From Clostridia bacterium (GTDB lineage: Bacteria > Bacillota > Clostridia > Christensenellales > UBA1242): a DNA stretch of 40,666 nt. The notes beneath the pieces are model-generated. The model did no database searches. It saw only the letters and a program-made list of their open reading frames with translations, and was not told the DNA's origin. The stretch lies in NCBI GenBank assembly GCA_017537405.1, contig JAFYKU010000056.1, positions 1 to 40,666 of the forward strand, given 5' to 3'. Of the stretch, positions 1-11,527 are shown piece by piece (position 1 is the first letter of the stretch; each line of letters begins with the position of its first letter). The translations under genes were made by a program, and so were the position numbers.

Positions 1-2
1 AT

Positions 3-692
3 TTGTTTATGAGTGATAATATAATTTATCCTAATACGAAGTCTTCTAACATTTTAAAGTTTGATGGTTTAAATACCAAGGAAGTCAAAAAAATATTTCT
101 ATTTATTGCAGACGAAATTCATGAAGCATTTTGTTGTTATTATATTTCTGGTAGCTTATATGATGAAATAGGTTATAGATATTTTAGAAAGCCTAATTCT
201 AATATAAAGCTTGAAAATAAATGGTATATATATGCAATTGATGCATTTGAAAAAAGACTGGAATTAATACTAGATAAATTATATGATAGCCAAAAAAACA
301 ATTATTCGATTTTTAATATATTAAATCATTTCGCAATTGAAGAAAATTTAAATAAAATTTGTAACACACAACAAAAAAAAAGTTTGTTTTTATCTTTACT
401 TGAAACTTATAACAATAAATGCTTGAATTTTAGAAAAAAATTAATGGATAGAAGAAATAATTTTAATGTACACATAGGTAATCGAATATTTGATGAAAAT
501 TTTAAGGAAAACCTTATATTTGGGACTCAAGAGTGTCTAGAATTATTATGCTATGCACATAATGCGTTATGCGAATTGTATCAATTTATGTTTGATGAAA
601 TATTATCTATATCTTCAGAATTTGAAGGGGAATTACATTATCAAATTAAAAAATTTATTTCAAACTTGAATGATAAAGGTAACCTAGAATAG
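3..692 (+). CDS. hypothetical protein, very AT-rich, possibly 5'-truncated at the window edge; weak HEPN-like Rx5H motif
   Basis: The ORF is open from the window edge (TTG at 3, first ATG at 9). It is visibly more AT-rich than the housekeeping genes. The motif MDRRNNFNVH lies at nt 450-473. The stop codon overlaps the hairpin ggtaacc-tagaata-ggttacc at 678-698. I recognise no family. Confidence 0.5.
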   Translation: MFMSDNIIYPNTKSSNILKFDGLNTKEVKKIFLFIADEIHEAFCCYYISGSLYDEIGYRYFRKPNSNIKLENKWYIYAIDAFEKRLELILDKLYDSQKNNYSIFNILNHFAIEENLNKICNTQQKKSLFLSLLETYNNKCLNFRKKLMDRRNNFNVHIGNRIFDENFKENLIFGTQECLELLCYAHNALCELYQFMFDEILSISSEFEGELHYQIKKFISNLNDKGNLE

Positions 693-824
693 GTTACCCT
701 ATGTTTTTGCGTTTGTGCATACTATAATTTTGTTTTCGCCTATGTGAAGGGTTGGTGCACCAAACACGAGGTAAAATGCAAAACACTTATCTAAAAAAAG
801 ACACCATTTCAGTGCCTTTTTTGA

Positions 825-1919: not shown

Positions 1920-3083
1920 TTAAAGTTGGTTTTCTTGGTTGGCATTAGTGATTTGTTCCGTATTTTGATAATTCTTAAAAACACTCGGATTCGCTTCAAT
2001 CGTCGGTATGAACTTTTTCTTTCCATAGAAACGAATAGCGCGGATATGTTCAATGAGACTATCCATAGCTTCGTTTATAAAATTTTGTTGTATAAAATTA
2101 CCACCACGCGGTGCACCGTAAACCTGTAAACCATTATGCTGAATATAATTAACATTATAGCCGTTTAAATAACCGCGTAATGTACTGTTTTGCCATAAAT
2201 GGTTGTGTTTATCTTCTGTGTTCGGATAAAAAGGAATTCCCGCTATAATCGCTGATTTCGTGCGTAATTTAATTGTATCTGCTTGGTTTGTACCTTTGGG
2301 GTTTAATGCCGTGGGCAAATCGTTCCAATTTTCAATTTCCCAAACAATCGGTTCAACCTTTACCCAATAACCATTGTTACCTCTGAAACCTTTATCAACA
2401 CGCACATACTTTTCGCCATCAATTTCATATTCGTCATATTGCGATAGACGCTGACGCTTATTATTATAGCGGCCAGTATAAGTTTTGCCGGTTGATTTTA
2501 AAATCCCATCTTCCCATTTTTTTTCTAACTCATAATTTATTTCATCACCTACATACGAAGTAGGGTATGTCCCCAAATTCATCTGACCTATACCCAAAGC
2601 AAAACAATTATTATGTTTGTTTTGTTTCGTTTGGTATTTTAAAACAGCCAAACATGCGTCAATTTCTAATTGCACACACGGACGAATTGCGTGTGGCAAA
2701 ATATTTTCTTTCATATTAACTGAATCAATCCGCCCAGACTCATCAATCACACTTACGCGGCGTAAATCATTGTCAAAAACATCTTGCTCCGCAGTACGCA
2801 GCCATGTACGGCAACCAACTCTTGATTTTGTTTGATTGATAGCCAGTTTTGCGTGTAAATCATTACGGTCTTCAAAATAAACTGCTTTGTTTAAAATCGC
2901 GTAATCTGTTGGAAAAGTTAAATTGGCTTTATCTCCTGATTTGTACTGAAACAAATGCATCGCAGCTTCATATTGCGAATCCAAATAAAAATAGTCATGA
3001 GTATCAAATCGATGATCAAACTCACAACCATAATTATCAGTATTACCTAAAGTCGTAATCGAAATTAAATCACAAAAATCCAT
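1920..3083 (-). CDS. DUF6273-like permuted paralog (no ATPase)
   Basis: Motifs are FYLDSQYEAA, TWLRTAEQ and IRPCVQLEIDACLAV. They are followed by PTGKTYTG...KYVRV...YWVKVEPIVWEIENWNDLPTALNP...IPFYPN...LWQNSTLRGYLNGYNV...NFINEAM. Confidence 0.85.
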   Translation of the reverse strand: MDFCDLISITTLGNTDNYGCEFDHRFDTHDYFYLDSQYEAAMHLFQYKSGDKANLTFPTDYAILNKAVYFEDRNDLHAKLAINQTKSRVGCRTWLRTAEQDVFDNDLRRVSVIDESGRIDSVNMKENILPHAIRPCVQLEIDACLAVLKYQTKQNKHNNCFALGIGQMNLGTYPTSYVGDEINYELEKKWEDGILKSTGKTYTGRYNNKRQRLSQYDEYEIDGEKYVRVDKGFRGNNGYWVKVEPIVWEIENWNDLPTALNPKGTNQADTIKLRTKSAIIAGIPFYPNTEDKHNHLWQNSTLRGYLNGYNVNYIQHNGLQVYGAPRGGNFIQQNFINEAMDSLIEHIRAIRFYGKKKFIPTIEANPSVFKNYQNTEQITNANQENQL

Positions 3084-3134: not shown

Positions 3135-5261
3135 TCAGTTTTTTTCAAGACTTGGTTTTTCCGCTCTAACTTCTTGTTGTTTTAATTGCTTTAAAAAGAT
3201 TGCTTTTTCCGGGGTGTTTGCCCATGCTTCATCGAAAACCGCTAAAATTTCATGGTTGAATTCTTTATTAATAAATTGACGCACAGTAGCCACTTCATCC
3301 ATTTTCGCATAACGCCACATCATAGCCATCGCATATTGCATATCTAAATTATGGGGAATTTCGTGACGAGCATAATTACCACTGACGATGTCTTGTACCG
3401 TGAGGGCAGGTGTCTTTGCAAATGTCATAAATGTATCCGCTAACATCGGCCCAATTTTATTACGGATTAATTCTAAATAAATTGTATTACCGTTATCATA
3501 AATCATATCACTGATTTGTTGCCAACCACGCGGATCAATCTTATATTTAGGCGGATTATCCTGGTCATACTGTGGACAAAAACATTCCATACCAACCGAA
3601 GCCACAAAGGCCGCTACCAACGGGTGAATATTGAGACGACCTTGTTGCGCTTTATGGGGATCTTCATTAGGCTCGCTTGCCCATTCTAACCACTCCGGAA
3701 TGTTAGGCTTAATGTAAACATGACCGAAGAAACGACGCTCTAACGGTTCTGCCATTTGATAAGCGGCTAAACTTTCTTCTAAACTGTTACCCGCCGCCAC
3801 GACCGATACATTGGCTGGCAACTTACCAATATTTGGACCAATTGAGTGTTCCAAAATAATATGAAATACTGCAGATTGTTCTTGCTCGCGCACATTCGTA
3901 ATCTCATCAATAAACAACACATGTTGCTTGTTTGGCTCTTGCGCGCACTTTTCACACAAATCGTTATACCATGCTGGTGCCTGCCATTGAGCAGAGTTCA
4001 CATTCTTTTCATCAAGAAAAATATTCTTACCAATAATTTCTTCCGGCAACATTCCATTGCGTAAAGTAATAGAAACAAAGTCGGGATCAATTTTTTTCAC
4101 ACGATGTGATTTACCAATCCCACTGGGACCATGTAACATCACCGTGTGTCCGTTTTGGATATATTTTTGTAATTGCTCATTAATCGACAAAGGTTTTTCT
4201 TGGATTTTAATTCCCCAACCCAACCGAGCTTTTTGATAAATATCAATTGTTTTTAACAACTCAATTTCGCGTGTAAATGCTTGTTGGATAAAATTATAAT
4301 GCGTAAAATCGCCACCACACGGAGCAGTGTAATCAGTATTTCCATTTTCTTTAATGTTATTAACATTAATACCGTTCAAAAATCCACGCAGCGAACTATT
4401 TTGCCACAAGTTATTATTATCATCAGTAAGATTTGGATAAAAAGGAATTCCCGCCATTAATACATATTTTGACGCTAAATCTAAACATACTGCGGTACCG
4501 CTACCTTGCGGATTAATCGAAGTTGGTAAATCTTTCCAATTTTCAATTTCCCAAACCAAAGGCACAACTTCTACCCAATAACCATCATTGCGTGGTCCTT
4601 TATTCACCCGCACATAGCGTTTACCATTAACTTCGTATTCAAAATAATAATTTGGTTTGTCATTTTTTTTATCAAAACAACCAGTGTAAGTTTTCCCCGT
4701 CGGAACAATCACGCGATGTTCCAAAGCTTCTTCTAGTTGTTTGTTAAATTTATCGCCAACATATTTTTGCGGGTACTCACCAAACAGCAAAACACCGTTT
4801 TGACCTTCAACATGCTGAACACTTAAAGTCTGTTGGTCATCTTTTTGATTCTTGTCCAACCAACTTCGCACTTTCAAAAATTCTAACAAATCCATGCGCG
4901 TGCGCGGAGATATACCTTGCGATAAATTTCTTTCACTTGGTGTGACAAAAAATTTTTTACCTGCTTCATTGCGAATACAAACACGACCAATCCCTAAACC
5001 ATCTTGTCCACCTGTTCGCAACCAAACACGGCAAGACGGAAACTTACCCAAAACTTCAGGATTAAAATTTTCATCTTTCGTATTTAATGCTTTATTTAAA
5101 ATTGCAAAATCTGTGGCTTGCGTTAATTGTGGGTCATCATAATCTCCCTCAATAAAAAACATATCACGCGTATTAAAATCTTGGCTTCCCCAATATCCAC
5201 TTAAATCCGTATTTAATAAAACCTTGGGGTTTAACAAATCATTAATTAACATACCATCCAA
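3135..5261 (-). CDS. DUF6273-like permuted head fused to a C-terminal MoxR/AAA_5-like AAA+ ATPase
   Basis: The head (about 4190-5261) carries VWLRTGGQ, GISPRTRMDLLEF, VWEIENWKDLPTSINPQGSGTA, LWQNSSLRGFLNG and NFIQQAF. In the ATPase, Walker A GPSGIGKS is at 4107-4130 and Walker B VLFIDEI at 3900-3920. Sensor-1 is VVAAGN and the Arg-finger region is EPLERRF. A lid-like C-terminus follows. Confidence 0.9.
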   Translation of the reverse strand: MDGMLINDLLNPKVLLNTDLSGYWGSQDFNTRDMFFIEGDYDDPQLTQATDFAILNKALNTKDENFNPEVLGKFPSCRVWLRTGGQDGLGIGRVCIRNEAGKKFFVTPSERNLSQGISPRTRMDLLEFLKVRSWLDKNQKDDQQTLSVQHVEGQNGVLLFGEYPQKYVGDKFNKQLEEALEHRVIVPTGKTYTGCFDKKNDKPNYYFEYEVNGKRYVRVNKGPRNDGYWVEVVPLVWEIENWKDLPTSINPQGSGTAVCLDLASKYVLMAGIPFYPNLTDDNNNLWQNSSLRGFLNGINVNNIKENGNTDYTAPCGGDFTHYNFIQQAFTREIELLKTIDIYQKARLGWGIKIQEKPLSINEQLQKYIQNGHTVMLHGPSGIGKSHRVKKIDPDFVSITLRNGMLPEEIIGKNIFLDEKNVNSAQWQAPAWYNDLCEKCAQEPNKQHVLFIDEITNVREQEQSAVFHIILEHSIGPNIGKLPANVSVVAAGNSLEESLAAYQMAEPLERRFFGHVYIKPNIPEWLEWASEPNEDPHKAQQGRLNIHPLVAAFVASVGMECFCPQYDQDNPPKYKIDPRGWQQISDMIYDNGNTIYLELIRNKIGPMLADTFMTFAKTPALTVQDIVSGNYARHEIPHNLDMQYAMAMMWRYAKMDEVATVRQFINKEFNHEILAVFDEAWANTPEKAIFLKQLKQQEVRAEKPSLEKN

Positions 5262-5316
5262 TCCTTTCTTTATAGATTAACATTTCAATCACTCAAATTC
5301 AAGAGTCAAACCAAGT

Positions 5317-7308
5317 TTATTTTTCTAATTCAGATTTTATGTTTTTTACTACCAAAGCTCGCGCTCCATCATAAACGGATAAAATTTCCTCACCAAATTC
5401 CCGGCTAATAAATTCACGAATCACTGGAACTTGTTCTGGTTTCGCATAACGCCACGCCATGGCTAAAATATATTGCTGGTCAAACTTGCGTGGTATTTCA
5501 ATTTGTGAATAATTTTTGTTCACAATATCTTCTGCCGTCAGTGGTGGGTTCTTCGCAAACGCCACCAAAGCATTTGTCAATAACGGTCCGATTTTATTCG
5601 CGATGATTTCTTTGTAAATCATGCCACCGTTATCATAAATTAAATCACTCACTTGTTCCCAAGCGCGTGGGTCAATTTTATAATTATATTTCTTGGTATC
5701 ATCTGGGTCTGGCTGCGGACAGAAGACTGCATCTCTCATGGAAGCCACGAAAGCCGTCACTAATGGATGCACATTTAAATGTCCTTTATCTTCGTTCATA
5801 CGATTGGCCCAATCTAACCAATCCATGATGTTGGGTTCAAAATAAATGTGACCATAAAATCTTCGCTCTAACGGTTCCGCTATTTGATAAGCTGCCGTAC
5901 TTTTTTCCATACTATTACCCGCCGCCACAATGGAAACATTGTCTGGTAATTTGCCGCAGTTTGGCGTCACCGAACGATCTAATACAATATGAAACACCGC
6001 AGATTGTTCTTGTTCACGCACATTAGTTAATTCATCAATAAATAAAATATGGCGCTTGTGCGGTTCTTTGGCACATTTTTCACATAAATCTGTATACCAC
6101 GCTGGTGCTTGCCATTGTGCCGATTTTACATCTTTTTCATTAATAAAAATATTTTTGCCAATAATCTCTTCCGGCAACATTCCATTGCGCAAAGTTAATG
6201 AAACATAGTTTGGGTCAATTTCTTGCACGCGCCGCGATTTACCAATTCCACTGGGACCATGTAACATCACAGGATGTCCATGTTCAATATATTTGCGTAA
6301 CTGCTCGGTTTCATTTAAAGATTGTTGACTTAAATTCACACCCCAACCTTTGCGATTAATTTTATTTTGACATTCAATGGTTTGCAATAATTCTTTTTCT
6401 TTTGTAAAGGCTTCATCGATAAAATTGTGTTCAGTAAAATTACCAGCGTTCAACATCGACAAATCATAACCATTTAAATAACCACGCAGGGTACTATTTT
6501 GCCATAGCGTCTTATTATTTTTAAATTTAAACTTTGCCGGATCAAAATTACTCGTACGATAAAATGGAATACCAAAATTAATAACATTGCGCGTGATTAG
6601 CTTAATTGTTTGCGCTTTGCCATTTCCTTGTGCATTAATTTCGCGCGGCAGCTCGTGCCAATTCGTGACAATCCAAGCCAACGGTTTATTAGCTAAATAA
6701 TAGATTCGATTATTTGTGGCAACCTTGACATATTTTTGGCCATCTAATTCACGCTCAGAACACAAAACAGGTTGCCCAATAATTTTATCAAAAGCTAACA
6801 GATATTTACGATTTGTCTTCACTAAACGGTCTTTTTCATTTTCAAAATTCCTATCGCCGTTCACCACAACTTGCGGATATTCACCAAAATCCAATAATAT
6901 GTAATCATGTTCTTTATCTTCAGGGTCTCGATAAAAAGCGTATCTTTCATCATCATGACGCTTTTTCATAGCTTCTTGTAAATCTAAATAAGCATTAATG
7001 TCTAAATTCATGCACGGACGCAAACCAATATTTATATCATCATAAAAAGCTGAACGCAGTCCATAATTTACATCATAATAATTAATTTTATCCGTTTCAA
7101 ACGCCGCACGGTCCCGCGTCCAAAAAGAACCATTTTTCTCAAAACCTTGCGGATTATTTTTAAACCCAATTTCAGCTAAACCAACCGTTTTAATATCAAA
7201 TAAAATACTCTGCGCAATTTCATTTGTGGACGGTAAAAAAATGCGATCACTGATTTTTGCATCTTCTAAATTTGTCGAGACAATAATATCTTCTAAACGC
7301 ATACTCAT
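5317..7308 (-). CDS. DUF6273-like permuted head fused to a C-terminal MoxR/AAA_5-like AAA+ ATPase (second copy)
   Basis: The head carries RIFLPSTNEIAQ, FWTRDRA, GLRPCMNLDINAYLDL, LAWIVTNWHELPREINAQGNGKA, LWQNSTLRGYLNGYDL and NFIDEAF. In the ATPase, Walker A GPSGIGKS is at 6235-6258. It also has ILFIDELT, IVAAGN and EPLERRF. This half is very similar to the ATPase half of 3135-5261. Confidence 0.9.
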   Translation of the reverse strand: MSMRLEDIIVSTNLEDAKISDRIFLPSTNEIAQSILFDIKTVGLAEIGFKNNPQGFEKNGSFWTRDRAAFETDKINYYDVNYGLRSAFYDDINIGLRPCMNLDINAYLDLQEAMKKRHDDERYAFYRDPEDKEHDYILLDFGEYPQVVVNGDRNFENEKDRLVKTNRKYLLAFDKIIGQPVLCSERELDGQKYVKVATNNRIYYLANKPLAWIVTNWHELPREINAQGNGKAQTIKLITRNVINFGIPFYRTSNFDPAKFKFKNNKTLWQNSTLRGYLNGYDLSMLNAGNFTEHNFIDEAFTKEKELLQTIECQNKINRKGWGVNLSQQSLNETEQLRKYIEHGHPVMLHGPSGIGKSRRVQEIDPNYVSLTLRNGMLPEEIIGKNIFINEKDVKSAQWQAPAWYTDLCEKCAKEPHKRHILFIDELTNVREQEQSAVFHIVLDRSVTPNCGKLPDNVSIVAAGNSMEKSTAAYQIAEPLERRFYGHIYFEPNIMDWLDWANRMNEDKGHLNVHPLVTAFVASMRDAVFCPQPDPDDTKKYNYKIDPRAWEQVSDLIYDNGGMIYKEIIANKIGPLLTNALVAFAKNPPLTAEDIVNKNYSQIEIPRKFDQQYILAMAWRYAKPEQVPVIREFISREFGEEILSVYDGARALVVKNIKSELEK

Positions 7309-7360: not shown

Positions 7361-7771
7361 TTATTCCGCTTGATAAAGCAAACAAAAATCTTTAATTACT
7401 GGGGATACATTATCAATCTGTTTCGCTGTTACAATGATTTGCGTTTCTTGCGGGAAAGCGAAACCATTTAAACCTTTATATTTTAAGATGCCACAAAACT
7501 TTGCTTGTTCACTGAATGGCAAAGCATCAATCCCATCGATACAAAGTAAAATTTTCTTTTTGGCGTGTGCTTTCATCATCAAAGTTAATAACCACTTCGG
7601 ATGTTGATAACCTTTATCTTGCGGAATAATACCCAATTCCGCTGACGGAGTAGTGGCAGGAAGCACAACAGCATCCGGAAAATTTTTCGCTGACACGCCG
7701 CCAATCACAAATGGCTGACTAGTTAGTTTAGTTAAAATATCACGGATAACTTTTTGCGATGCTTGTGTCAT
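7361..7771 (-). CDS. small degenerate AAA+ core remnant with no functional Walker A/B, translationally coupled to the upstream paralog
   Basis: It aligns by eye to the ATPase cores of the two fusions. VIGGVSAKN stands in place of LHGPSGIGKS. ILLCIDGIDALPFSEQAKF stands in place of VLFIDEITNVREQEQSAVF. IIVTAK stands in place of VVAAGN. It ends before the Arg-finger and lid. An ATGA start/stop overlap with the 7768-8952 gene lies at 7768-7771. Confidence 0.65.
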   Translation of the reverse strand: MTQASQKVIRDILTKLTSQPFVIGGVSAKNFPDAVVLPATTPSAELGIIPQDKGYQHPKWLLTLMMKAHAKKKILLCIDGIDALPFSEQAKFCGILKYKGLNGFAFPQETQIIVTAKQIDNVSPVIKDFCLLYQAE

Positions 7772-8952: not shown

Positions 8953-9037
8953 ATCAAATTCCTTAATATAGCATAAGCTCTTAATTTTCAATTTGCAATA
9001 CCCATTCAAAAAAAACTTTTATGAAATATTTTTCTGT

Positions 9038-10168
9038 TTAAATAATTTGATTATGTGTTTGGCTTGTTTGGTTAATTTTTAAACCTTGTCCATGATTAAT
9101 AACAATTCTTAATTTTTTTGGTTGTTGTTTATTTTTGATATCAATATCTCGAATCAATTCTTTTTCTTCTGCAAAAGCTTCGTTAATAAAATTTTGTTGA
9201 CTGAATTGATAATTATTACCCACCGCATAACGCGTGTTGATGTTCTTTTTTAACTGCTTCAAATCATATCCATTGAGGTACGCACGAATCGGACTGTTTT
9301 GCCATAAATGAGCATTGATTTCTTCGTGTGGGAAAAAGGGTATTCCTGCATTAACCACATAACTACAAACCAATTCAATATATTGTGCTGTTCCGTTTCC
9401 GTTTGGATTAATCGATTGCGGTAAATCATCCCAATTTAAAATATCCCATTCTAATGGTTCAACAGTAAACCAATAACTTTCTTTTTGTGTATCAAGATTG
9501 ACACGAACATAACGCGTATTGGTCAAATTTGAAACATATTCAGCATGGCGAATCGGTTTATTATTTTCACCAACAAAACAACCCAGATAAAACTTTCCTG
9601 TGGGAACTAAAAAACCATCATGCCTTAAATTTTCCAATTGCCAAGTATCACTTTCATCTAAAAGAGTTTTTGGATAATCACCCATTAAAAATGATTTAAT
9701 CAAAAAATCATTTTGAATCTTAAACTTTTCTGTATCTTGTTTTGTTTTAAAAAATTTATCTTGCACGGCTAAGAAAGCATCAATATCCATTTTTATTTGT
9801 GGGCAAATACCTTGTCCTAAATCGCGTTGCCATGGTTTTTGTAATTTGAACTCACTTTTCTCTAAATAACTATTGGGCTTACTACAATCTTCTACATTAA
9901 AAGTAAAAACTTTTTTTTCATCTTTTAAATCAACACCAGAACAAGTCCACATGTTCACAATTGAATTAGTATAAACCGTTTTTGTTTGTTGGTTATTTGC
10001 TATCCGAGCATTAATTCTTGCATAACCACTTGTATACCTTTTTTGATAAAAATCAACCTGTTTTAAAATATCTTCACGAGATGGCAGATAAAACATATCG
10101 GTCGTAACAAAGTGTTTATTTGTTGTGTTGTTTAATTTTACAGGAACGATTAATTCAGATATTTGCAT
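9038..10168 (-). CDS. DUF6273-like permuted paralog (no ATPase)
   Basis: Motifs are MFYLPSREDIL, GICPQIKMDIDAFLAV, PTGKFYLG...RYVRV...YWFTVEPLEWDILNWDDLPQSINPNGNGTA, LWQNSPIRAYLNGYDL and NFINEAF. The Shine-Dalgarno sequence is aagaggt. Confidence 0.85.
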   Translation of the reverse strand: MQISELIVPVKLNNTTNKHFVTTDMFYLPSREDILKQVDFYQKRYTSGYARINARIANNQQTKTVYTNSIVNMWTCSGVDLKDEKKVFTFNVEDCSKPNSYLEKSEFKLQKPWQRDLGQGICPQIKMDIDAFLAVQDKFFKTKQDTEKFKIQNDFLIKSFLMGDYPKTLLDESDTWQLENLRHDGFLVPTGKFYLGCFVGENNKPIRHAEYVSNLTNTRYVRVNLDTQKESYWFTVEPLEWDILNWDDLPQSINPNGNGTAQYIELVCSYVVNAGIPFFPHEEINAHLWQNSPIRAYLNGYDLKQLKKNINTRYAVGNNYQFSQQNFINEAFAEEKELIRDIDIKNKQQPKKLRIVINHGQGLKINQTSQTHNQII

Positions 10169-10178
10169 ATTACCTCTT

Positions 10179-10208
10179 ATTATATTATATTCAACCCACT
10201 AAATTCAA
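10179..10208 (-). promoter_or_regulatory. putative promoter of the 9038-10168 paralog
   Basis: On the minus strand the -35 is TTGAAT (10203-10208) inside the motif GGTCTTGAAT. An 18-nt spacer precedes the -10 TATAAT (10179-10184). The Shine-Dalgarno sequence AAGAGG follows. Confidence 0.5.
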
Positions 10209-10219
10209 GACCCAAATTT

Positions 10220-11527
10220 TTAACGCGTATAACCAAGGTCATCATTTTGATGTGATTGGCTTTCCTTAAACATTTGACGGATTTCATAAGGATCTACTTT
10301 TAAAACTTTTCCGCAACATGGAGTGAACTCAATATCACGCCAAACCAACCAAAATAAATTTTTAATTCTTCGGTTTTCTTCTTTATCGGTAACAACATCT
10401 AAGCCATCGGTAAAAATAATTTTATAAACATTTTGCATACGGTCTTTTGAAAAATGAGCAAGTGCTTCATCGAAACTGGTTCCGCCACGCCCTACAATTT
10501 GAAATTGGTCAATATCTGACACTTTTTTAATACTTTGAAATCCATAAAATTGGGTATCAAAACAACCAACCTTTAGCTCGGCATTACGCACTAGATTTTT
10601 AATCTCCCTTAAAAAACCACGCAACAAATTATCATCAACAGAGCCACTGGTATCCAACATGACTTCCACCAAAGCTTTGTCTTCACGATATTTATATTCA
10701 ACGCGTGGTTGCCAATCATTGTTGCGGTCAGCTCTGCGGTAAGACCAATAGGCTTGTTCTAATTCCTTAAATTTTCGTCTCAAAACTTTTTGCCAATTTT
10801 CAATCGGCTGCGCTTCACCAACAACTCCTAAATCAGTTTTCATAGCACCTTGATTTTCACCATGCGCCATACCTTTTTCAGCTTTCAAATCTTCCATGAT
10901 TTTTCGCGCCAATTTTTGTTTCAATTTTTCATTAACCTGTGTGAACTGTTTTTCGCGAGCATTGGATGATTCGTCTTTGGTTGTTTGTGTTTGATTATCG
11001 CTTTGTTCTTGTTCCAATCGTTTTAAGGCTGCTTCCCACAATTCATGGTTACCAACAGACATTTCTCCTGTGTTTTGATGCTTATCATGACCAGTGTCAT
11101 TTTGCGACTCTTCTTTGAATTGGTCTTTATGCATTAATATATATTCGTACATTTCTTCCGCTGATTTTCCGCGTGCATTAGGAAGATTAATTCCACCTTG
11201 GGGTAGTGGTAACCCTGCATCGATAATCATTTGATTAATCACAGCATCAGTGGCAATGTTCCAATAATATAAAATACGATTTTTACTACGGACAATATGA
11301 TCAAAAGCCACATGCATCACTTCATGCGCAAATAAAGCTATTTTTTCTTCAAAACTTAACTTCTCTAAAAATGAAGGTGATACCCGTACATTATTACCGT
11401 TCGTATCTGCCGTTTCTGTTTTATCTGTAACTTCAAAAACTAATTTTTGCATTACAGGCCCTAATAGCGGAAATTTACTTAATACGCCATTTTTCACTTC
11501 TTTTAAAGCTTGTACTTGCATCATCAT
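10220..11527 (-). CDS. VWA (MIDAS) domain protein with an N-terminal HExxH putative metallopeptidase domain (DUF2201_N + DUF2201/VWA-like architecture)
   Basis: HEVMH is at 11312-11326 within FAHEVMHVAFDH. The MIDAS-like DTSGS is at 10640-10654 within VMLDTSGSVDD. A Gln/Glu/Lys-rich linker lies between the two. It is the first gene of the paralog array and on the same strand. Confidence 0.8.
   Translation of the reverse strand: MMMQVQALKEVKNGVLSKFPLLGPVMQKLVFEVTDKTETADTNGNNVRVSPSFLEKLSFEEKIALFAHEVMHVAFDHIVRSKNRILYYWNIATDAVINQMIIDAGLPLPQGGINLPNARGKSAEEMYEYILMHKDQFKEESQNDTGHDKHQNTGEMSVGNHELWEAALKRLEQEQSDNQTQTTKDESSNAREKQFTQVNEKLKQKLARKIMEDLKAEKGMAHGENQGAMKTDLGVVGEAQPIENWQKVLRRKFKELEQAYWSYRRADRNNDWQPRVEYKYREDKALVEVMLDTSGSVDDNLLRGFLREIKNLVRNAELKVGCFDTQFYGFQSIKKVSDIDQFQIVGRGGTSFDEALAHFSKDRMQNVYKIIFTDGLDVVTDKEENRRIKNLFWLVWRDIEFTPCCGKVLKVDPYEIRQMFKESQSHQNDDLGYTR

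Follow-up and report, generated by a model that had tools for sequence, protein, structure and literature searches.

The closest described systems are pairs of a MoxR-class AAA+ ATPase and a von Willebrand factor A (vWA) protein, such as NorQ-NorD, CbbQ-CbbO and RavA-ViaA; their mechanism has been described, for example, for NorQ-NorD (PMC9976466, PMC13036017). In the MoxR-vWA ternary conflict systems reported by Kaur, Burroughs, Iyer and Aravind in 2020 (PMC7159879), there is also a third component (VMAP, iSTAND, FtsH or a beta-propeller), and C-type-lectin-fold FGS domains, often diversified by diversity-generating retroelements (DGRs), are fused to the vWA component. DUF6273 is likewise described as C-type-lectin-like and as a scaffold for variable binding, and is reported as a DGR target in the receptor-binding proteins of gut phages (PMC10743442; bioRxiv 10.1101/2024.10.15.618418). 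Here we describe two adjacent fusion genes, A and B, in a stretch of 40 666 nucleotides from a Clostridia bacterium (contig JAFYKU010000056.1 of assembly GCA_017537405.1; this whole stretch is hereafter called the window). Each gene combines an N-terminal head with an ATPase engine predicted to be of the MoxR class. As in the known pairs, the cluster also encodes a vWA-like protein, which has a DxSxS motif. Unlike NorQ, CbbQ and RavA, the engines of A and B carry the head, of about 340 residues, and a helical C-terminal region of about 190 residues. The locus also differs from the known MoxR-vWA pairs in its vWA-like protein, a member of DUF2201 with an N-terminal HExxH metallopeptidase-like domain (DUF2201_N), and in having a P-loop-less mini-AAA-like protein of 136 residues as a constant third gene. 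A client enzyme, such as the nitric oxide reductase (NOR) or Rubisco of NorQ-NorD and CbbQ-CbbO, is not apparent. The A/B pair belongs to an uncharacterised three-gene ATPase/vWA-peptidase system and is a stable mosaic of ancient origin, not a hotspot of ongoing recombination.

Identity between A and B is clearly non-uniform along their length. The two proteins are 50% identical over 598 residues (BLASTP, E = 0), and a global alignment scanned in sliding windows gives 15-45% amino-acid identity to B for residues 1-340 of A and 50-85% for residues 346-708, the highest values (75-85%) lying at residues 365-460. An earlier reading of the window, made from the letters without database searches (the sequence-only reading), had described two fusion open reading frames (ORFs) with strongly diverged heads and with engines sharing long identical peptide runs; the ORFs are as described and all of the runs that it quoted are present in the alignment. 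It had also noted an ungapped DNA match between 4043-4142 and 6171-6270, in which 85 of the 100 positions prove to be identical. The identical 19-mer that opens this match is found nowhere else than at 4043 and 6171 and lies within a 23-mer common to 4039 and 6167; a second 23-mer is common to 4120 and 6248, and there is no longer exact match between the two genes. Along the 2128-bp diagonal, identity reaches 73-84% at 3735-4134 and is 21-32% elsewhere, a background level due to indels, which shift the comparison frame. The codon-aligned nucleotide identity of the heads is 38-54%, except at the WQNS motif (about 71-74%).

The histories of heads and engines were compared by including two further species of the same genus (G009 and G002; the window genome is G000) and relatives that carry a single fusion. 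The engine tree joins A and B as sisters (support 100/100) on a shared stem of 0.91, with the fusion of the single-fusion relative G018 outside. The same clade is recovered from residues 520-600 and 601-708 alone (96/96 for these C-terminal 108 residues). In the head tree, each of the six paralogous heads of the window (those of A and B and the head-only genes h1 to h4) forms an orthogroup. The head of the G018 fusion joins that of A (96/96), and the B head, which is not sister to the A head, lies on a long branch of its own with a stem of 0.83. Approximately unbiased (AU) tests reject an A+B head clade on the head data (p = 0.0012) and an A+G018 engine clade on the engine data (p = 8e-52). 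The proposal of the sequence-only reading that these are mosaic genes holds in this phylogenetic sense. Sites at which A agrees with G018 against B stand to the converse as 88:22 in residues 1-345 and as 42:74 in residues 346-708. A maximum chi-square scan places a highly significant switch at A residues 330-334, in the last helix of the head and just ahead of a low-confidence linker (residues 344-348; predicted local distance difference test score, pLDDT, below 50); we do not count this result as proof of recombination, since a burst of rate in the B head gives the same signal. A second breakpoint inside the engine was rejected: the site counts are even at residues 601-708 (14:16), but the tree unites A and B there, which indicates a single switch.

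The explanation that we prefer, and hold to be somewhat more probable than its competitors together, is that A and B are old tandem paralogues of a modular gene that underwent an ancient exchange limited to the engine, and that their products function in the manner of MoxR-vWA pairs. The gene would consist of a DUF6273-related head of about 340 residues, probably a binding module, a short flexible linker and a MoxR-class AAA+ engine. Before the three species split, one event would have left the same engine lineage in both genes and heads of different lineages; gene conversion limited to the engine, or recombination at the level of domains, with a breakpoint at the end of the head (about A residue 330), would be the likeliest. 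A B-type engine probably overwrote the engine of A. Both engines are expected to be active ATPases that work with the 136-residue protein and the DUF2201 vWA/metallopeptidase in a mode resembling NorQ-NorD or CbbQ-CbbO: they would form hexameric rings acting on or through the vWA/metallopeptidase protein, and the 136-residue protein would be a subunit with a structural or regulatory role. Both fused and free-standing heads would recruit targets, and they would differ in target specificity. Fit to the same partners, and possibly to each other in mixed hexamers, probably kept the engines alike, leaving the heads free to specialise.

It is the engine of A that is anomalous. It is 52-55% identical to the engines of the relatives G018, G011 and P0038, which are 65-74% identical among themselves, and 64% identical to that of B, whereas the identity of the A and B engines to all other family members is 48-55%. 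The A head (46, 39 and 40% identical to the heads of G018, G011 and P0038, respectively), the 136-residue protein and most of DUF2201 are not anomalously divergent. Moreover, the engine stem (0.91) is similar to the stem of the B head (0.83), as would follow if the engine of A came from a B gene that was divergent throughout. There is also a precedent in the family. In the metagenome-assembled genome (MAG) SIG384, two paralogues on different contigs (L040 and L041) have 95-100% DNA identity over about 1 kb of the engine (4955-5955 of L040) and 43-84% in the heads. In protein terms, the two are 98% identical in the engine and 59% in the head, and the similar tract begins in the last part of the head; the sequences come from a MAG assembly, and the case is either a recent engine-limited conversion or an assembly chimera. 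The L040 copy is followed by a small gene and DUF2201, which the L041 copy lacks. It is the restriction of the anomaly to the A engine, together with the similar stems and this precedent, that leads us to favour an engine exchange. The change of affinity at a domain boundary is as sharp as in domain-limited gene conversion between tandem paralogues, of which L040/L041 would be a recent example; unlike in recent cases, the event in the window is old, synonymous sites have since become saturated and the copies are now ordinary orthologues.

A plain tandem duplication of the whole gene is the strongest competitor, and we regard it as a serious possibility of clearly lower probability. The engine would have evolved fast in the ancestor, the B head would have undergone a burst of change after the duplication (neofunctionalisation), and the incongruence would be a long-branch artefact. 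The AU, maximum chi-square and tree tests cannot separate this from an engine exchange, because a long B-head branch mimics recombination. Several observations speak for it, and some of them also weigh against our own explanation. The B head has a long branch and, orthologues apart, still finds its best matches among heads of the A clade (P0003, P0002 and P0001); the AU and maximum chi-square tests are both sensitive to such an asymmetry of rates. The B protein of G002 retains the loop NVNNIKENG, identical to that of A. In addition, B is roughly equidistant from A and G018 across the head, as expected if its own branch dominates, and the DUF2201 protein of G000 is slightly more divergent than those of its relatives among themselves, which hints at some lineage-wide acceleration. 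Other points also tell against the exchange. Outside the three species, no gene resembling B but carrying another engine was found, so that the donor lineage is undocumented, and no closer relative of the B head, as would be expected if it came from elsewhere, occurs among the best 120 database homologues or in the genus members G004 and G007. Synonymous saturation wipes out the direct trace of any old conversion tract. The functional part of the explanation is drawn by analogy and the mixed hexamers are conjecture; the Pfam AAA_5 and AAA_3 scores of A and B lie under the gathering thresholds, no experimental literature on DUF2201 was found, and no structural neighbour in the PDB or BFVD (Foldseek) supports a binding role of the head. 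Against a duplication, it requires two separate domain-limited accelerations, one of the engine before it and one of the B head after it, and there is no matching acceleration in the A head, the small protein or most of DUF2201. The AU test also rejects an A+B head clade, and engine-limited exchange is seen directly elsewhere in the family (L040/L041).

The same contrast between engine and head appears in tandem pairs of other lineages. In the MAG MGBC144555, two fusions of 714 and 692 residues (L077, 990-5608) are 57% identical in the engine and 35% in the C-terminal part of the head, and their N-terminal head parts are not alignable. At another locus (L078), the second fusion copy appears to be split into ORFs of 440 and 219 residues.

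Both copies were present in the common ancestor of the three species and have been separate, stable orthologues since then. The A orthologue is 96% identical in G009 and 68% in G002, B orthologues are present in both, and the gene order is the same in all three genomes. The A engines form one clade and the B engines another, each branching as (G002,(G000,G009)), with at least 99/95 support at the key nodes, and this topology recurs inside every paralogue group of the head tree; that the engine clades keep it means that there has been no homogenisation since the species split. Gene conversion keeping the engines alike, as the sequence-only reading had envisaged, accordingly finds no support as an ongoing or recent process. 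The proportion of synonymous differences between the A and B engines is 0.69 (dS about 1.85), that is, saturated; the value for G000-G002 orthologues is 0.64-0.68. Identity between A and B at third codon positions is 0.45-0.65. The nucleotide identity of A and B within G000 (at most 0.86) is no higher than that between A of G000 and B of G002 (0.84). Two-by-two site patterns over A residues 384-460 (4 orthologous, 8 concerted, 7 other) give no signal either way, and the concerted sites are all third positions. There is thus no excess of similarity within genomes, no concerted pattern and no low dS. The DNA similarity of the engines has been preserved by amino-acid constraint on the core of a ring-forming ATPase and does not stem from fresh homogenisation: the best-conserved tract holds most of the invariant columns of the 82-sequence family alignment, namely Walker A, Walker B, AAGN and the RR pair. 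Nor is there any sign of exchange among the six heads of the array, in which the best match of every head segment is its orthologue, with no paralogue-to-paralogue patches.

The sequence-only reading had further suggested that the directly repeated ATPase segments, about 2.1 kb apart, could serve as a substrate for deletion or duplication. They are a poor one: no exact match exceeds 23 bases, and the identity over about 400 bp is 73-86%. Assembled metagenome contigs carrying a 95%-identical A protein were inspected for junction variants (13 were read, of which 10 are listed). In each of the 10 places among the contigs listed, A has B, or the 3' part of B, immediately upstream, and no A/B junction variant was seen in them; the B-then-A order is also intact in the three species. 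The single-fusion relatives G018, G011 and G005 branch outside the A+B engine clade, and so represent an ancestral state, not deletion products. Array copy number does vary, but the variation concerns the head-only gene h1 and does not involve the ATPase repeats.

Ongoing concerted evolution, in which recurrent conversion keeps the engines alike and the 2.1-kb-spaced repeats actively delete and duplicate, would be the strong form of the sequence-only reading; it is largely refuted for the window and retains very little of our confidence. A recent engine-limited conversion in another MAG of the family and the difference in array copy number between close strains (the loss of h1) would fit it, as would the many short metagenome contigs that end inside B, which could reflect assembly trouble induced by repeats. 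Against these stand the saturated synonymous sites, the monophyly of each engine across three species, the equal A-B identity within and between genomes, the 23-bp limit on exact matches, the intact junctions and the fact that the loss of h1 does not involve the ATPase repeats. That A and B are independently acquired members with no special shared history, alike in the engine only through constraint on the MoxR core, agrees with the coincidence of the best-conserved tract (residues 377-514) with the family-wide invariant columns, but is scarcely credible given the long exclusive A+B engine stem (0.91, 100/100), which extends to the less-constrained C-terminal 108 residues (96/96), and the engine identity of 64% against 48-55% to all other members.

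The polymorphism of h1 was seen in a strain about 96% identical in nucleotides (JGI contigs L027 and L028), which wholly lacks the gene. A relic remains between DUF2201 and h2 in L027 (4141-4297, against 9035-10219 of the window): 82 bp are 83% identical to the 3' part of h1.

All parts of the array compared are under purifying selection. The ratio dN/dS was estimated by the Nei-Gojobori method between G000 and G009, for which dS is about 0.05-0.25 and the counts are small. The engines are tighter (0.07 for A and 0.25 for B), in agreement with the stronger purifying selection that the sequence-only reading had supposed for them, and the heads are relaxed (0.14-0.62) and not globally above 1. 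The values for the N and C parts of the head are 0.45 and 0.24 in A, and 0.31 and 0.14 in B; those for h1, h2 and h3 are 0.48, 0.62 and 0.26. The neighbouring GT8 and DUF2201 genes have 0.13 and 0.20. Divergence of the A head between G000 and G002 is patchy, the N-terminal 150 residues being 28-58% identical and residues 180-230 being 85-91% identical; the patches of the B head show the opposite pattern.

The engine is predicted to be a MoxR-class AAA+ ATPase on the combined grounds of its fold matches, its motif pattern and its vWA neighbour. The AlphaFold2 model of A has a mean pLDDT of 86. Its top Foldseek matches in the PDB are CbbQ (6l1q) and many NorQ chains, among them NorQ bound to the vWA domain of NorD (9qh7 and related entries), with E values of 9e-9 to 1e-7 and template modelling scores on the target of 0.57-0.63, followed by MCM, McrB and dynein. 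Walker A (GPSGIGKS) lies at residue 378 of A and residue 351 of B. Across the 82 sequences, Walker A and Walker B (LFIDE) hardly vary or do not vary at all; A490 of AAGN and R510 of PLERRF are invariant, and G491, N492 and R509 are almost so. By analogy, AAGN would be sensor 1 and the Arg pair of ERRF the Arg finger. The order of Walker A and B, sensor-1 Asn and Arg pair (...AAGN...Y.M.EPL.RRF) is that of NorQ-NorD, CbbQ-CbbO and RavA-ViaA; unlike NorQ, CbbQ and RavA, A and B are too divergent for the Pfam thresholds. A scores 19.3 with AAA_5 (cut-off 22) and 22.0 with AAA_3 (cut-off 27), and B scores 20.3 and 17.7, both below cut-off; the sole AAA+-type profile to pass is Sigma54_activat, for A (23.3 against 20.2). 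There was no match in NCBIfam, and PDB sequence searches with A and with DUF2201 gave nothing meaningful.

The A head alone (residues 1-341) is modelled by AlphaFold2 as one compact unit (pLDDT 92.6, predicted template modelling score 0.92). Foldseek found no neighbour of it in the PDB (best E 0.11) or BFVD (best E 0.039), and the C-type-lectin likeness reported for DUF6273 was not reproduced by this search. The link to DUF6273 (PF19789, cut-off 23.5) comes from sequence profiles: B matches with 33.7 bits at residues 15-103 and h2 with 36.3 bits, each to only part of the profile (positions 77-171 or 46-171). No match to A was obtained at E <= 0.01, h1 and h3 are below cut-off, and BLAST or phmmer alone ties A to the matching heads. 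The profile halves are matched out of order: positions 77-171 fall at the protein N-terminus and 27-69 near residues 283-350 of h1. This points to a circular permutation, with an insert rich in beta structure at about residues 147-250. The heads resemble the DGR-targeted DUF6273 tentaclins and Mtd-like receptor-binding proteins in that B, h2 and other family members match part of PF19789 above threshold, and differ from them in lacking signal peptides, in being fused to a cytoplasmic ATPase and in that A has no match. No N-terminal hydrophobic signal was seen when the sequences were read by eye, in agreement with the fusion to a cytoplasmic ATPase. Diversification of the heads by a DGR was considered and set aside: no reverse transcriptase (PF00078) was found in the 83%-complete genome, and no further search for template and variable repeats was made.

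The fusion, a protein of about 136 residues and DUF2201 form a triad in about 50 of the 79 loci found in species-representative genomes, which belong to gut Clostridia and many gut Alphaproteobacteria MAGs, and the triad is also found beside distant homologues. DUF2201 adjoins the fusion, or is separated from it only by a small gene, in about 50 of the 79. In the single-copy relatives the order is fusion, a protein of about 138 residues, DUF2201 and one or more head-only paralogues; it has been rearranged in the lineage of the window, in which DUF2201 leads the array. On the P0038 contig, the triad is in the same dnaA-dnaN-serS-gmk-pyk neighbourhood as in the window, which indicates vertical inheritance rather than a mobile island.

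The DUF2201 protein matches its two Pfam families with 96.3 and 44.4 bits and carries the motifs HEVMH (metallopeptidase-like) and DTSGS (vWA-like); by analogy, it is the presumed MoxR partner. The 136-residue protein has no P-loop and is collinear with the engine core from WxxPxWY through a Walker-B-like LCIDG to a sensor-1-like VTAK. Its likeness to this core is weak (hhalign E 0.012; reciprocal hidden Markov model matches with E < 1e-3 in several loci), and it has no Pfam, NCBIfam or PADLOC match; its sequence and recurrence mark it as the putative constant third subunit of the system, not as the remnant of a fusion split in this lineage. PADLOC gave no match of note for the array, and the clusters of homologues have no recorded names.

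Elsewhere, the engine occurs with a doubled head, with only the second half of the head, with no head (347-394 residues) or with long C-terminal extensions. This modularity supports the view of the heads as exchangeable binding modules. A protein of 1082 residues (P0006; L044, 3563-6811) has two complete tandem heads, 36% identical, and one engine; the small gene and DUF2201 come next. An N-terminal BspA-type leucine-rich repeat (LRR) region (PF13306, 88 bits) replaces the usual head in a gut MAG of the Alphaproteobacteria (L111, 2522-5059). At other loci the engine has C-terminal extensions of 400-560 residues with no Pfam match.

The locus resembles the MoxR-vWA ternary conflict systems (PMC7159879) in combining MoxR, vWA and a third protein in one neighbourhood, in an effector-type (peptidase) domain on the vWA component and in an attached variable binding domain. 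It differs in that the variable module is on the ATPase, not on the vWA protein, and is multiplied as paralogues instead of being diversified by a retroelement; in that it is vertically inherited beside dnaN-serS-gmk-pyk in reduced gut Clostridia, not in multicellular bacteria; and possibly in its third component, the 136-residue protein with its weak AAA+-core likeness, instead of a VMAP or iSTAND.

A conserved engine with diverged heads in tandem paralogues is a common outcome of modular protein evolution and is modest on its own. Here the pattern marks the head-engine linker as an exchange point of an uncharacterised and widespread family, and the reuse of the same engine with different binding modules (doubled heads, LRRs) gives the strongest hint so far that target selection for a MoxR/vWA/metallopeptidase machine falls to the heads. 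Two engines and six heads with orthologues in three species amount to a natural experiment on MoxR specificity. More speculatively, and with a probability that we put well below even, the array might be an expandable recognition machine in which one MoxR-type ring, possibly a mixed A/B hexamer, served by the P-loop-less subunit and the vWA-metallopeptidase, displays interchangeable heads of a fold that lacks known structural neighbours, new specificities arising by duplication of heads and their grafting at the recombination-permissive linker. If so, it would be a paralogue-based, retroelement-free counterpart of the DGR-diversified MoxR-vWA sensors, kept even in gut Clostridia genomes of about 0.8 Mb and present also in gut Alphaproteobacteria.

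The features of the array are listed in table 1. All the genes are on the minus strand, and they are transcribed in the order DUF2201_N+DUF2201 gene, h1, h2, 136-residue protein gene, B, A, h3 and h4; all head homologues of the window genome are located inside the array.

Table 1. Positions in the window of the A/B fusion genes, their parts and the other genes of the array.
Feature	Position	Strand	Basis
Gene A, fusion of a head and a predicted MoxR-class AAA+ engine	3135-5261	minus	ORF of 708 residues
Gene B, fusion of a head and a predicted MoxR-class AAA+ engine	5317-7308	minus	ORF of 663 residues
Head of A, residues 1-341: headN (1-150) and headC (151-341)	4239-5261	minus	AlphaFold2 model, head tree
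Engine of A, residues 342-708: AAA+ core and helical C-terminal region	3135-4238	minus	motifs, fold matches
Head of B, residues 1-314, long-branch head lineage	6367-7308	minus	head tree, AU test
Engine of B, residues 315-663	5317-6366	minus	engine tree, intact catalytic motifs
Most similar DNA tract in A, encoding Walker A to Walker B and sensor 1	3735-4142	minus	ungapped diagonal
Partner tract in B, offset by 2128 bp	5863-6270	minus	ungapped diagonal
Phylogenetic switch region, A residues ~330-349: last head helix and low-confidence linker	4215-4274	minus	maximum chi-square, pLDDT
P-loop-less protein of 136 residues, collinear with AAA+ core	7361-7771	minus	locus conservation, weak hidden Markov model matches
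DUF2201_N metallopeptidase-like and DUF2201 vWA-like protein	10220-11527	minus	Pfam
Head-only paralogue h1	9038-10168	minus	homology to heads; missing from a 96%-identical strain
Head-only paralogue h2, DUF6273 36.3 bits	7768-9009	minus	Pfam
Head-only paralogue h3, nearest paralogue of the A head (44%)	1920-3083	minus	homology, head tree
Head-only paralogue h4, divergent	825-1766	minus	homology, head tree

The source MAG of the window has 822 kb and is 83% complete; its close relatives come from animal and human gut samples and have NCBI titles such as 'MAG: Clostridia bacterium'. The array takes up about 10 kb of this genome of about 0.8 Mb, which suggests that it is important to the organism. 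Upstream of it are genes for a GT8 glycosyltransferase, an acyltransferase, pyk, gmk, two class II aminoacyl-tRNA synthetases and dnaN. The end of h2 and the start of the 136-residue protein gene overlap by 4 nt. The start of A is uncertain: the longest ORF begins at a TTG at 5261 and the database protein of the contig has 705 residues, which suggests a start at a Met three codons downstream (window 5252-5261); the G009 orthologue can be read from an upstream start (713 residues). Beyond h4 (window 1-820) there is an AT-rich ORF at 3-692 with a GC content of 0.26. The same flank holds a DpnII-type restriction-modification set and an AAA_23/AAA_21 protein in L027 (12393-17622), and three small unrelated ORFs in G009 (L018, 12206-13905). 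Since this flank differs among close relatives, the array abuts a variable region.

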